From Eledone cirrhosa (lineage: Eukaryota), in NCBI GenBank assembly GCA_964016885.1, contig OZ024757.1:2728001-2792000 (forward strand): a stretch of 64,000 bases of DNA. Direction: 5' to 3'. Position numbers and translations under genes: made by a program. The notes below the pieces were generated by a model. That model had not been told where the DNA came from and made no database searches. It saw only the letters and a list, made by a program, of their open reading frames with translations. Of this stretch, positions 3,556-63,828 are shown in pieces. The first letter of the stretch is position 1; every line of letters begins with the position of its first letter.

Positions 3556-4034
3556 AAACAAATAACGAAAGCAAATTAAATTTCGTTTCGTTTGTAACTC
3601 ACTTTTGTATGACTGACGCTTAAACAATTAAGTTAAAAATGTACATCCACATATGTATACTGAAATACTAGTATGCATATGAATACACACACGTATACAT
3701 ATGTAGATGTACCGAGTTTTTCACTGGTCACTTTACTGTGAGTGTCCAGCTATTCTGTATGTAAACACACAGACAAACCGGTTTTTAGAGTCATACTGGT
3801 TTTTGAGGAAACACCTTTCCTCTATTCTCCAGAAAGCCAGACAAGGAATATTGAACTAGTTTCGTTGTTGTTACAACTCATCAGCAATATTTACTTATCT
3901 TCCGGCCCTTCTAGAGAATCGTAAAAGCACATATCGTTATATGCTTTTTCTATGAAAATTAGTAGTGGGCAGACTAATTTGCATAGAGCGTGAGTACGTA
4001 CCGGTTCAACGGAGACGATAAAAACAAATAACGA
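3556..4034 (-). mobile_element. Non-coding HHR element (retrozyme-like, about 467-nt monomer) in (TA)n
   Basis: Starts and ends with aaacaaataacga (short terminal redundancy); other copies at 16117-16597 and 41427-42138 (1.5 monomers). Confidence 0.8.
3847..3891 (-). ncRNA. Canonical minimal type I HHR
   Basis: Minus strand: aatattg-CTGATGA-gttgt aaca acaac-GAAA-ctag-TT-caatatt; perfect stems I and II, palindromic stem III; identical at 16410-16454 and 41722-41766. Confidence 0.92.
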
Positions 4035-4048
4035 TATATATATATATA

Positions 4049-4260
4049 TTATTAGAAATGTAAGCTATCGCCGTATTTTGACTAAAGAAATTAAATAAAT
4101 TATTTAGCCTGATAGTGGGGTTAAGAACCCTCGGAGAAATGGAAAAAGATGAGTATTGAGGTACGTCAATACTCATCTTTTTCTTAACCCCACCATCAGG
4201 CTAAATAATTTCTTTAATTTCTTTAGTCAAAATACGGTGATAGCTTACATTTCTAATAAT
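4049..4260. repeat. Fold-back element (about 77-bp inverted arms plus inner 18-bp hairpin)
   Basis: attagaaatgtaagc...ggggttaagaa against its reverse complement; inner gaaaaagatgagtattga/tcaatactcatctttttc; copy at about 16610-16820. Confidence 0.85.
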
Positions 4261-4398
4261 ATATATATATATATATATATATATATGTATATATGTATAT
4301 ATATACATATATGTAATAATAATAAATTTGAAGACTAAAATCCAATGATGTATATATATATGTATATATATATGACTTTTTCGAATATTAATATTCGG

Positions 4399-5519
4399 GT
4401 GTGGTGTCCTCTGTAAAAAGGACACCACACACGAGGCACTAAAACTTGCTTCCTGAAGCTCCCACACTTCACTAACGAAACAACAACAGCCATCCGCAGA
4501 GCTATCAGACGAGAGGGACTAGATATCCAACTGGCCCACTCAGGTCCTTCTCTACGCGGACAGCTAACCAAAAGACACTCCACATGACAGCCTCTGCAGG
4601 CTAGCCAACTGCCCCATCAACGACACAGACCTATGCCACCAGGATTACGTCGTATACAGACTAGAGTGCGACAAATGCAGCAACTTCTACGTAGGTAGCA
4701 CCACCAGACCACTTCACATAAGAATAAAATAACACCTCAATACTAATGCTTCCTCATTTAAGAAACACCTAGTTAAATGCAAAAACACCGACAAAAACAT
4801 AATAGTTAGGATAGAAGGTAAGGAAAGAAACCTCGGCAATCTTAGAATTAAAGAAGCACTGATTATAGACAAAACGCAACCACCAATCAATAACAGACTA
4901 GAACTCAACACCCAATTTTTAACATGATAGAGCTCCTAGCCCCACACTTACAGTTACACGTACCCTCTCTCACACACACACACACACGCACGCACGCATA
5001 CACATACACTTACACCTCCACTTATTCTCTCTCACACACACACATACACACACAAAGACCAGTTTTAACATGATAGAGCATCTAGCCCCCACATTTACAT
5101 ATAGACATATCCTCTCTCACACACACACACATACGCATGCTTACACCTTCACGTATCCTCCCACACACACTTAAACGTACATGCCCAAACCCCTTTTAAA
5201 GGGAGACAACTCTTTATCCACCTAAACACCACTCCTTGACATTAGAGATAAAATGGAATTTCTATACCATTTCCTGTCAGCATAACTTGGCAAGCTAATT
5301 AGAACACTGGTTTAACCCCTTTACTTCCCTCCGAAGAAGAGACATTATCTCGAAAATTAAGGATATTCAAATAAATTTAAGGTAAAAGACTAGTTGTCAA
5401 CAATATCTTTTGCATTTGTATTTTTATTCTATATCCATACCTGCATTGTTTTGGCCTTCTAACTCCAAACGTTTATACCTCATTACGCAATGCTTCAAGT
5501 AAACTACAATTTCCTCCTA
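4399..5519 (+). mobile_element. 5'-truncated PLE of a second clade (GIY-YIG remnant plus 3' region)
   Basis: Manual translation ..LKLPHFTNETTTAIRRAIRREGL.. then CPINDTDLCHQDYVVYRLECDKCSNFYVGSTTRPLHIRIK*HL..LRIKEALIIDKTQPPINNRLE; degenerate HHR (ccgaaga..gaaa) near 5327-5364; copy at 16950-18069. Confidence 0.8.
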
Positions 5520-5822
5520 TATATATATATATATATATATATATATATATATATATATATATGTATATATATATGCATATACGTATTTTATCTCTAGATT
5601 ATAAACATACAGAGACATTAGCCCTGAATTTTTGTATTTACATACATCTTTTCGGCATGCGTATGCATGTGCATATATTTTTATGCATATCTGTGAACGA
5701 AGTTACTTACATATATACATACACCTAACTGTATACACTTTTTGTGTTTTCATTGGTCAATTTGAACTCTGTTCCCAAACAGACCTGTAATTTTGAATTG
5801 TTGTTATTATCAATAAATATAT

Positions 5823-60624: not shown

Positions 60625-60698
60625 TATATATATATATATATATATATATATATATATATATATATATATATATATATATATATATATATATATATATA

Positions 60699-62177
60699 TA
60701 ACGAAGGAGTTGTGGTAAGGAACCAGATGGACCATAACGCACCAGAGTAATCAATACTTAGGGTAGTAGAGAGGGTAATAGGAGAAAGTATGACCCCGAC
60801 GGCAGAGCTCAAGCCGTTTCGACGGCTATTTCTGGACTAAAGTAAGAGTTTTTTTAGTCTGGTAAATAAATAGCCGAACTTTTCAAGGGGTACTTCCTTA
60901 TATGGGAAGATTGTAGTTGTCAAGAGGATTGGTCAAAATTTGGAGCAGACACAGAAAAGTCTATCATGGCAGTGGGTGCGGGGTGGAGGTGGCTGAACTT
61001 GCCTGTAGAACGATAGGGGAGTGGGTAGAGCCGGTCAAGCGTTGAAGGTGAAATCTTCACGGCTAATTCTAAGGAATGTGTATGAAAGTAGGCAAGAGGA
61101 GGTAAGCGAAAACATGTATCTTTAGAAAAAGGAGGAGGGACGTTATAGAATAGGTAAATCAAATGAGATTAGGGGACAATGAAAAAATATAATAAAAGAG
61201 AATATAATAAAAAATGAGAGAAAGATATATCAGAATGTAAGATTGGAAAGTGAGAAGTGAAATAAAACAGAAACTAAGGAGTCTAAGACAGCTGCTATAT
61301 TTAGTTGGTTCTGCTATGTCGGCCAATGCTATAGAATGGGTTGCTAGATGAGAATTATTGAAAATTTAGAATTGGGTATTAAAAATTAATACAACATCTC
61401 TGGGGTCTAACACAGCTGCTATGAATAGTTAGTATAGCGTAATCGGTGAATGCTATCTGTAAGTTACTGGGGTGGGGGTACTGAGGCTAAAGAGGCCCGA
61501 TGGGCTGCCTCGGGGTAGGCGAAAGGGGGAAAAAAACCAAGAAACGAACGAGGAAGAAGTTCGGTGGTGGAAGGAAGTGATAGTAGGAGACAAAGGGAAG
61601 AAGAAAACATAGAGGTAAAGAAAGGAGGTACATCTACCTATATAAGTTGGGGTTTTCCCTATCTTATTCGGCAAGTGGGGTTTTTCAGCCCTTGTCTACC
61701 TACCCGGATCGTTAGGGGGTTTGAGGGCGAGGTAAGTCTTCCGCAATCTGTGTTTGCATGCAGTTATCAGTTTCATTGTCCCCTAATCTCATTTGATTTA
61801 CCTATTCTATAACGTCCCTCCTCCTTTTTCTAAAGATACCTGTTTTCGCCTACCTCCTCTTGCCTACTTTCATACACATTCCTTAGAATTAGCCGTGAAG
61901 ATTTCACCTTCAACGCTTGACCGGCTCTACCCACTCCCCTATCGTTCTACAGGCAAGTTCAGCCACCTCCACCCCGCACCCACTGCCATGATAGACTTTT
62001 CTGTGTCTGCTCCAAATTTTGACCAATCCTCTTGACAACTACAATCTTCCCATATAAGGAAGTACCCCTTGAAAAGTACCCCGGCTATTTATTTACCAGA
62101 CTAAAAAAACTCTTACTTTAGTCCAGAAATAGCCGTCGAAACGGCTTGAGCTTTGCCGTCGGGATCATACTTTTTCA
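60699..62177 (-). mobile_element. HHR element with 400-bp inverted duplication
   Basis: 61771-62177 is the reverse complement of about 60785-61184; HHRs at 60793-60891 (-) and 62064-62165 (+): acccc-TTGAAAA..GAAA-cggc..gccg-TC-ggg. Confidence 0.85.
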
Positions 62178-62206
62178 TATATATATATATTATTCTTATT
62201 ATTACT

Positions 62207-62410
62207 CGGTGGATTGGCAGTATCGGTAGAGGGTCGAACGCCATGCTTTCCAGCATAGTTACGTCCCTTTACGATCTGAGTTCAAAATCCCGCCGAGGTT
62301 GACTTTGCCTTTCATCCTTACGGGGTCGATAAAATAAAGCACCAGTAATGCACTGGGTAATTGCTGGCCTTGTGCCTAACGTAGAAACAATTAACGTAGA
62401 AACAATTATT
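62207..62410 (+). mobile_element. SINE with duplicated 3' tail
   Basis: Same family; taacgtagaaacaat occurs twice. Confidence 0.9.
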
Positions 62411-62951
62411 AATATATATATATATATATATATATATATATATATATATATATATATATATATATATATATATATATATATATATATATATATATATAAC
62501 CGATTTTTCATTCACTTGTTAATTCGTATTTGACTCGAGATATGTTGGTTGAGTACTTATAGAATCTCGACCCCTACCATCACGGAAATTTCTGAACCAG
62601 TGGCCAATCAGTTGACGGTACTTTGGTGACCCGGAGGGATATCAGTTACTACTGTCACATGTTGCATTTACAGCCATAGCCAGCAGAGAAGGGAATCGAA
62701 TCCTGTCGATTGATTGGTTATTGATTAGGCGAAACTCGCTGATGAATCCACATGCGCCGATTGTGTATTGTTGCATAATAAATGCAGACAATGGATACTA
62801 TAGACTTTCAAAACAAATAAGCGAAGGAAGGAACGCTGCCATGGTTATCAATTTTAAAGGTTCGCAAATAGTAAAGCGAACTCCTTTTTATTGGCAGCAT
62901 GGCCCTCCCAAAGTATAGCATTATATATATATATATATATATATATATATA

Positions 62952-63828
62952 AATGTAATCTGAGTTTTTCGAATATTAATAATAACATTCGATTCGTCTG
63001 CAATTATGCAAACAAGCCTCAATTTATAGCCATGTCAGTAGAATGAACACTTCACTCTTGCACTTGCGTTAGCATGCGAACAGAACTGCAGACACTAATG
63101 TTTCTGGGTTTCACCCTTCATCAGTACAGCTCACTGTTGACCTGCAAAACTGTCAGAGCTAGTGAAAATATATGCTATTTTCAAAAATACACAGTGACTG
63201 ATTGGCCTGATTTGTATATTAGCAGACTGGCTGATCAGTCAGATCTGCATATTAGCTGATCCACTGATCAGCCAGATTTGCATATCAGCAGACTGGCATG
63301 CGAGCGATAAATGGCCGGTTTTGCCAAATTCAAATAATAAAGAAAATTTCGCTCTACATGGCTGAATAAATGTAATCTGAGTTTTTCGAATATTAATGAT
63401 AACATTCGATTCGTTTGCAATTATGCAAACAATCCTCATTTTTATAGCCATGTCAGTAGAATGAACACTTTATTCTTGCTCTTGTGTTGGCATGTGAACA
63501 GAACTGCATTCTACTGACATAGCTATAAAATTGAGGCTTGTTTGCATAATTGCAAACGAATCGAATGTTATTATTAAATGTGGATTGGCAGTATCGATAG
63601 AGGGTCGGATGCCATGCTTTCCAGCATAGTTACGTCCCTTAACGATCTGAGTTCAAATCCCGCTGAGGTTGACTTTGCCTTTCATCCTTACGGGGTCGAT
63701 AAAATAAAGTACCAGTAATGCACTGGGTAATTGCTGGCCTTGTGCCAAAAGTAGAAACAATTATTAATATTCGAAAAACTCAGATTACATTTATTGTATT
63801 CAGCCATGTAGAGCGAAATTTTCTTTCT
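62952..63828 (-). mobile_element. HHR element, 417-nt monomer with redundancy and inversion, interrupted by a SINE
   Basis: aatgtaatctgag at 62952 and 63369; HHR 63086-63129 (-): ctgta-CTGATGA-agggtgaaaccca-GAAA-cattagtg-TC-tgcag; inverted part about 63506-63828. Confidence 0.85.
63579..63759 (+). mobile_element. SINE
   Basis: Same family; flanked by attattaa. Confidence 0.9.

Follow-up and report, generated by a model that had tools for sequence, protein, structure and literature searches.

Non-coding hammerhead ribozyme elements of Eledone cirrhosa share the insertion anatomy of Hydra-type Penelope-like elements and are probably copied from circular templates

Animal non-long terminal repeat (non-LTR) retrozymes are non-coding, low-GC, self-paired tandem repeats with units of a few hundred nucleotides, each carrying one type I hammerhead ribozyme (HHR). 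These elements and their circular RNAs (circRNAs) have been reported, and a circRNA intermediate and mobilization by Penelope-like elements (PLEs) were proposed (Cervera and de la Pena 2020, PMC7229834). Unit lengths are given as 150–450 bp (PMC7229834) or 51–972 (10.64898/2026.07.22.740005). A PLE origin of retrozymes was argued by Li, Clavereau and Pollet (2026, 10.64898/2026.07.22.740005), in whose set 24 of 57 frog retrozyme families match Repbase elements, 21 of them PLEs. We analyzed a 64,000-nt stretch of the Eledone cirrhosa genome (contig OZ024757.1, positions 2,728,001–2,792,000; assembly of 3.0 Gb), called the window, in which five non-coding HHR families (A–E) are inserted into (TA)n tracts.

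The PLEs of the Hydra clade target (TA)n, carry HHRs, form tandem and inverted insertions, often have a tail at one end only, and are generally <3 kb long (Craig et al. 2021, PMC8557442). The origin of such tandem and inverted insertions was named an open question in the same study. To account for PLE copies longer than one unit, a circular template was suggested in 2014 (PMC4209133), and a self-priming model has been put forward for the inverted arms (PMC3846280). The anole PLE protein PAc Poseidon nicks both target strands and extends each of them, with reverse transcription starting at two internal sites on either side of the tail (Frangieh et al. 2024, PMC11167929). Non-autonomous elements are also known from the Chlamys clade, for example MRC1; canonical HHRs are absent from this clade (PMC8557442).

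Families A–E agree with the retrozymes described above in composition, unit size and ribozyme type. They differ from the retrozyme reports in that their arrays are single insertions with inverted arms, paired start sites and a TA target, and in the U3-A8 cores of B and D. The 2026 preprint attributes tandems to local amplification and describes homology to the pseudo-long terminal repeats (pLTRs) of PLEs, whereas the arrays of A–E look born long and have no pLTR match among the PLEs of the window. With Hydra-clade PLEs (PMC8557442), A–E and the coding family J of the window share (TA)n targeting, HHRs, tandem and inverted insertions and the one-ended tail, and the J open reading frame (ORF) has the motifs listed for the clade. 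Unlike these PLEs, A–E have no ORF, the tails are 40–168 nt rather than 30–40 nt, and the J unit is 6.65 kb rather than <3 kb. The likeness to PAc Poseidon extends to two internal start sites of the reverse transcriptase (RT) that bound the tail, nicking and extension of both strands, an AT-rich target and a predicted dimer (PMC11167929). MRC1-type Chlamys elements likewise depend on PLEs, lack coding sequence and insert as several head-to-tail copies, but they resemble the 3′ ends of their helpers (PMC8557442). Earlier publications thus cover retrozymes as well as the circle hypothesis, the one-sided tail and the pair of start sites, and the first-pass annotation, which left open whether its families had been described, listed a known class together with some ends of coding PLEs. 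Added here are the quantified pairing of start sites and the clonality across arms. We found no literature report of PLE hallmarks on retrozymes, near-strict pairing, both-arm clonality or these families; subscription journals, Repbase/Dfam, Fig. S2 of PMC11167929 and the preprint supplements lay outside the search, and the last two may bear on pairing.

Families A–E were defined by self-comparison of the window. Bases 1–24000 and 35101–64000 were read by eye, and motif scans took in all 64 kb. The monomers measured 467–469 (A), 591 (B), 433 (C), 555 (D) and 438 nt (E). The first-pass annotation had given the same lengths except for E, where its value of 417 nt reflects a deletion in the window copy. 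It had also called the families unrelated, whereas A and C are homologous (68–71% alike over up to 252 nt). The units of all five families close head-to-tail, with a longest ATG ORF of 83 codons, GC contents of 35–42%, 62–68% paired bases and circular-fold z scores of −3.3 to −9.9. Genome-wide sampling used one search per family, and the 40 best full-length matches of each were scored. After overlap removal, 31 A, 38 B, 30 C, 27 D and 24 E loci were mapped (cited below by L numbers); the first-look candidates (A 225, B 390, C 2896, D 1661, E 2826) do not represent copy numbers. Pieces "1-50" and "542-592" in the search listings were padding artefacts and were rejected as element ends. Identity among the sampled copies was 99–100% for A and B, 94–98% for C and D, and ~91% for E. 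The copies are dispersed over many contigs in (TA)n, each with its own TA junctions, and hold 1 to 36 units per insertion, with single arms of up to 27 units. The direct redundancy at the ends, the multimers, the inverted arms and the (TA)n flanks, all noted at first pass, are confirmed.

A strict HHR descriptor matched the window 11 times (0–1 matches across 30 shuffles), a second descriptor 15 times at a score of at least 15 (shuffle mean 0.05), and a permissive one 20 times at the same score (null mean 0.15, maximum 2 in 20 shuffles). The union of the scans contained 24 credible motifs, which together with the D motif and three motifs of family H (see below), all read by hand, make ~28 HHRs. 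This count lies far above the shuffles and bears out the earlier figure of more than 25 in 64 kb. Each tandem unit carries a predicted type I HHR motif. In a comparison with Rfam, among the matches listed (150 of 254), HH9 was reported for three family-A copies only, at 37–38 bits compared to a gathering score of 52, and the remaining output consisted mostly of microsatellite-driven microRNA matches. The U3-A8 variant core of B and D was known earlier from schistosome PLEs (PMC4209133). In contigs of public sequencing runs, the U-A pair of A stem II was replaced by A-U in one run and in ~30% of another, a pair-preserving change, and the A cut triplet was GUC in one run. Stem I of D varies among G-U, G-C and A-U with pairing kept. 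In three of four public runs of unstated kind, the A unit is a single contig that closes after 469 nt; a tandem array gives the same result, so these contigs were discounted as evidence for circles. None of the runs listed for family A is recorded as RNA. A sequencing run of unstated kind (X1) covered window positions 41427–41895 with a summed depth of ~5e5 and many high-frequency variants, which carries no information on expression.

The insertions consist of either one arm or two inverted arms with the RNA 3′-type ends facing outward into (TA)n. Each family has two fixed outer-end sites, 40–168 nt apart (A, 1 and 68–73; B, 423–427 and 1; C, ~84 and 25; D, 1 and 78; E, ~399 and 1), and the stretch between these sites corresponds to the PLE tail. 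Among 67 two-armed insertions with TA at both ends, 54 combined the tailed with the untailed site, one used the same site twice, and 12 had one non-standard end. A further 28 two-armed insertions that lacked a clean TA flank were excluded from this count; 8 of them were tailed plus untailed and none was same-site. In A and B alone the ratio was 36:1 (binomial p 3e-10). Single-armed copies draw on both sites (5:3 in A, 5:8 in B). The inner ends were scattered, and the 52 joins analyzed had a short overlap (28), a blunt junction (7) or filler (17), with neither arm consistently longer (29:23). No tail sequence or fold common to all families was found; a hairpin is common to A and C only. The variable redundancy, which the first-pass annotation had taken to fit reverse transcription around a circle, was dropped as proof of circular permutation because starts are confined to two fixed sites and variation is limited to the 5′ ends, a trait common to all PLEs.

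The (TA)n target, the inverted 5′-truncated arms and the one-sided tail are common to A–E and the coding Hydra-type PLEs of the same genome. On these grounds, the mobilization of A–E by PLEs, which had been suggested at first pass, is well supported. The coding family J inserts into (TA)n, has a 137-nt tail and kept the pairing rule in all four resolvable arrays. Coding family F has a 91-nt tail and kept the rule in 9 of 10 cases by eye, while a script resolved 4, of which 3 complied. For H, the rule held in the window copy and about five others, as judged by eye. An intact 813-aa J ORF contains, by eye, RWR, DKT, YRDD, CxCX5C and a C-terminal endonuclease region without CCHH, which matches the Hydra-clade list of PMC8557442 (RWK-like, represented by RWR in J; DKT; the CxCX5C linker; a C-terminal GIY-YIG region without CCHH; CxxC and CxH motifs). 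Its Atlas neighbors carry HTH_animal, RVT_1 and GIY-YIG. Searches of Pfam (4 proteins) and PDB assigned no family to the ORFs of the window. The window ORF (6327 to 8763) has one frameshift, but intact copies exist elsewhere in the genome, and many of the 121 scored J copies have open frames of 827–831 codons. In most arrays, the J unit is 6.65–6.67 kb long with a long microsatellite-rich 3′ region, which exceeds the norm of the clade. In two-armed J arrays, a single arm may comprise as many as five 6.65-kb units. One of them (G000:C6:49524001-49574000, L284–L288) comprises five nearly identical head-to-tail units and an inverted arm over ~41 kb.

Next to the anatomy, the distribution of variants within arrays bears on the template. 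In 14 of 31 A and 14 of 38 B insertions, 32 minority variants were fixed in every covering unit; 16 of them extended across both arms and none was confined to one arm. Similarly, nine private variants ran throughout all three long units of one two-armed J array (6.65 kb). There are many distinct insertion-wide haplotypes, which implies that the arrays passed repeatedly through a single unit. The predicted HHR cut falls at monomer positions 302/303 in A and 77/78 in B and was spanned without an indel (within 4 nt) in 172/172 A and 118/118 B units (290/290 in total). Only 6 of 249 inner ends lay at the predicted cut, compared to 4.5 expected, which rules out run-off at the cut as the usual end. 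Ten of the 20 A arrays with at least four units had at most one non-fixed variant. Array length did not increase with divergence (rho −0.13 and −0.39), and the median lengths in the young families were 4.6 units (A) and 2.65 units (B) compared to 1.4–1.6 in the older C–E. The long arrays look as if they were born long and are young.

We consider it probable (roughly 0.65) that A–E arise by two-ended target-primed reverse transcription, carried out by a Hydra-type PLE protein on a predicted monomer circle with one start site for each end. Tandem transcripts would self-cleave at the HHR, in A and C probably as dimers via the palindromic stem III, and the cleaved monomers would be ligated into circles. 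A dimeric Hydra-clade RT/GIY-YIG protein acting in trans would nick both strands of (TA)n, whereupon the two target ends would prime at different sites, one tailed and one untailed. Each RT would then roll 0.05 to ~6 rounds around the circle with strand displacement, the two cDNA ends would be joined by repair, and the longest arrays would be extended afterwards by DNA-level duplication. Clonal arrays, units that run through the cut without a seam and the length of young arrays give indirect support to rolling on a circle; these lend weight to the circular-RNA template of the first-pass annotation, for which variable redundancy by itself says little.

Several observations weigh against this reading. 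The case is built on genomic DNA, from which the circle, the cleavage and the transcript are predicted. No helper could be assigned to A–E by sequence in a comparison with the PLE families of the window. Clonality is compatible with one RNA molecule and with one source locus alike. The choice of the best full-length matches biases arm lengths and in D favors the site-1 arm. The pairing has exceptions (L044, L221 and the window copy at 19728, the last same-site by eye), and a variant of L067 was seen in the sole covering unit of one arm. The start sites of PAc Poseidon in vitro did not differ between the strands (PMC11167929), whereas the two ends of A–E insertions almost always use opposite sites. 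In the same in vitro system, uncleaved RNA was the main substrate and HHR mutants were still inserted. Long arrays (the C3 array, L048 and L234) contain repeated blocks of unit-specific variants; expansion at the DNA level thus does take place, and a 27-unit arm does not equal 27 rounds. In L043, one variant occupies the fourth unit of each arm and was detected from either side, which accounts for 2 of 54 index-matched comparisons; a multimeric template would give such a pattern. The ends of three single-armed B copies lie 1–3 nt before the cut. In D, whose predicted cut lies between monomer positions 235 and 236, 8 of 45 inner ends lie 10–17 nt before it (positions 218–225; nominal p 6e-4 with a biased null). 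Five of these eight are at position 225, just before stem I of the HHR, and the cluster possibly reflects an RT stall or a nicked template.

The substrate preference in vitro, the block duplications, the L043 variant and the B and D ends near the cut would all be accommodated if the same PLE machinery, with its paired sites, copied an uncleaved or partly cleaved linear multimer and clonality came from near-monomer founders and DNA-level growth. Self-cleavage in only one of nine frog retrozyme dimers (10.64898/2026.07.22.740005) points in the same direction. However, the many array-wide haplotypes would demand frequent one-unit bottlenecks, 4–9-unit arrays without internal differences would demand growth of both arms before any mutation, and array length does not rise with age, the older families being shorter. 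We regard such a multimeric template as unlikely, though not negligible. Repeated end-to-end jumping of the RT on a cleaved linear monomer would explain read-through without ligation, as well as the clusters of B and D ends near the cut. Template jumps usually add or lose bases, whereas all 290 passes were seamless and the arrays are not haplotype mosaics, which makes this possibility improbable.

The remaining explanations dispense either with the second priming event or with the elements as separate entities. If a single priming event were followed by fold-back or self-priming, with the first cDNA or an antisense template copied into the inverted arm (as in PMC3846280), variants common to both arms would follow automatically, and 7 of 52 inner junctions are indeed near-palindromic. 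Arm lengths, however, rule out fold-back in 9 of the 52 insertions, either arm may be the longer one, unit-specific variants are almost never common to both arms, and the end of the second arm at the other fixed site is left unexplained; we judge this course very improbable. The monomers could also be nothing more than terminal parts of coding PLEs, either pLTRs or 3′ ends, that were amplified as satellite DNA, as proposed for frog retrozymes (10.64898/2026.07.22.740005). This holds for H and probably for G in the window. For A–E it is scarcely credible, as their units close head-to-tail without longer ORFs, the copies are dispersed with TA junctions of their own, and no similarity to the ends of J, F, G or I was found when the PLE families of the window were compared. 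The only link is a weak D–H match of 31 nt (E 0.008).

The features of the window are collected in Table 1.

Table 1. HHR-bearing and PLE-type features of the window (window coordinates)
Feature	Position	Strand or form	HHR	Remarks
Family A	3556..4033	−	core 3884	monomer plus ~13 nt redundancy, in (TA)n
Family A	16117..16596	−	core 16447	derived with the 3556 copy by segmental duplication; old variants in common
Family A	41427..42138	−	core 41759, predicted cut after 41729	1.52 units of the 469-nt monomer; start at tailed site
Family B	13659..15977	two-armed	U3-A8; 13813 and 14405 (−), 15655 (+)	591-nt monomer
Family B, left arm	13659-14908			2.1 units from untailed site
Family B, right arm	14905-15977			1.8 units from tailed site
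Family C	19728..20130	two-armed	20010 (−)	both ends at tailed site (read by eye)
Family C	47250..47857	+	core 47555	1.2 units of 433 nt plus short inverted arm
Family C, 3′ fragment	55340..55490	+		end at tailed site
Family D	59851..60624	−	U3-A8, long stems II and III	1.39 units of 555 nt
Family E	62952..63828	two-armed	core 63124 (−)	SINE within second arm
Inverted-arm element	40780..40974		HHR-like core 40846 (−)	short; read in window
Coding Hydra-type PLE J	5564..12712	+	5833 and 12169, 115-nt stem II	direct pLTRs 5564-6173 and 11898-12712; candidate helper
Coding PLE F	42139..45709	+	45611	broken, 5′-truncated; end at untailed site (91-nt tail in other copies)
Family G	50138..51640	two-armed	50238 (−) and 51440 (+)	3′ end of longer element
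Family H	60701..62176	two-armed	U3-A8	coding-PLE 3′ region; start sites 1 and 78
H-like copy	45760..47244	inverted arms		diverged; 79–84% identity

Several entries differ from the first-pass annotation. The A copies at 3556 and 16117, listed there as separate cases, represent one insertion within a 1.96-kb duplication (98.9% identical). Of its further families, the element at 19728 belongs to C. The elements at 45759 and 60699 are the 5′-truncated 3′ region of coding PLE H, since in genome-wide copies RT/endonuclease coding sequence abuts them (tblastn). The element at 50137 is G, and neither G nor I was supported as a monomer family, no period being found within 1.5 kb (20 G and 15 I loci). 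With regard to whether the monomers are only pLTRs of an autonomous PLE, the two groups differ: H and probably G are ends of coding PLEs, whereas A–E have no match among the PLEs of the window apart from the one weak match in D.

The inner end of the A copy at 41427 adjoins the truncated coding F, and window positions 41427–45709 possibly form a mixed-family insert of A (tailed) and F (untailed). L034 and L253 are possible mixed inserts of A (tailed) with a 59-nt H end (untailed) and of B (untailed) with I (tailed), respectively. All three follow the pairing rule. The H and I parts are only 85–88% like the window copies, and these inserts may instead be older neighbors brought together by target deletion. 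A family-A insertion of 35.7 units in two arms lies at G000:C3:113967617-113984359 (L031–L033); repeating variant blocks in its long arm point to later duplication. More PLE-type ends that carry HHRs, some of them F-like, were found at 289, 10283/10379, 20692, 37348, 49997, 58163, 58321, 48056, 59143, 19324 and 41099. Other fragments of GIY-YIG-type coding elements lie at 4370-5517 and 21329-22300, one of them interrupted by a long TA tract.

The assembly that contains the window is rich in simple repeats (TA, CA and others). Large tandem arrays at 24150-28890, 31040-35200 and 35244-36118 consist of 16/21/37-nt, GTG and 59-nt repeats. Several stretches of 2670-5973 are repeated at 98–100% identity in 12885-18068 and 11898-12712, partly through pLTR duplication and partly through local segmental duplication. 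A short interspersed nuclear element (SINE) of ~190 nt is present in six copies (2350, 12307, 37016, 37515, 62207 and 63580), several of them nested in PLE-type elements; it may be an octopus SINE.

The circular-template idea dates from 2014, and the literature consulted contains no direct proof of it. The units described here are young, nearly identical and 0.45–0.6 kb long, their start sites are mapped, and intact ORFs of candidate helpers exist in the same genome, all of which makes the idea directly testable. Tentatively, and at somewhat less than even odds, the observations might reflect a general PLE mechanism, in which an asymmetric RT-endonuclease dimer, with one protomer per start site, makes many rounds on a ribozyme-made circle. 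A community of viroid-like circles would parasitize this machine, and two RNAs would occasionally enter one site. The insertion anatomy ties animal retrozymes to the PLE machinery beyond mere co-occurrence. Tool builders may also take an interest in a telomerase-related RT that would use a small circle to write inserts of several copies into TA repeats.

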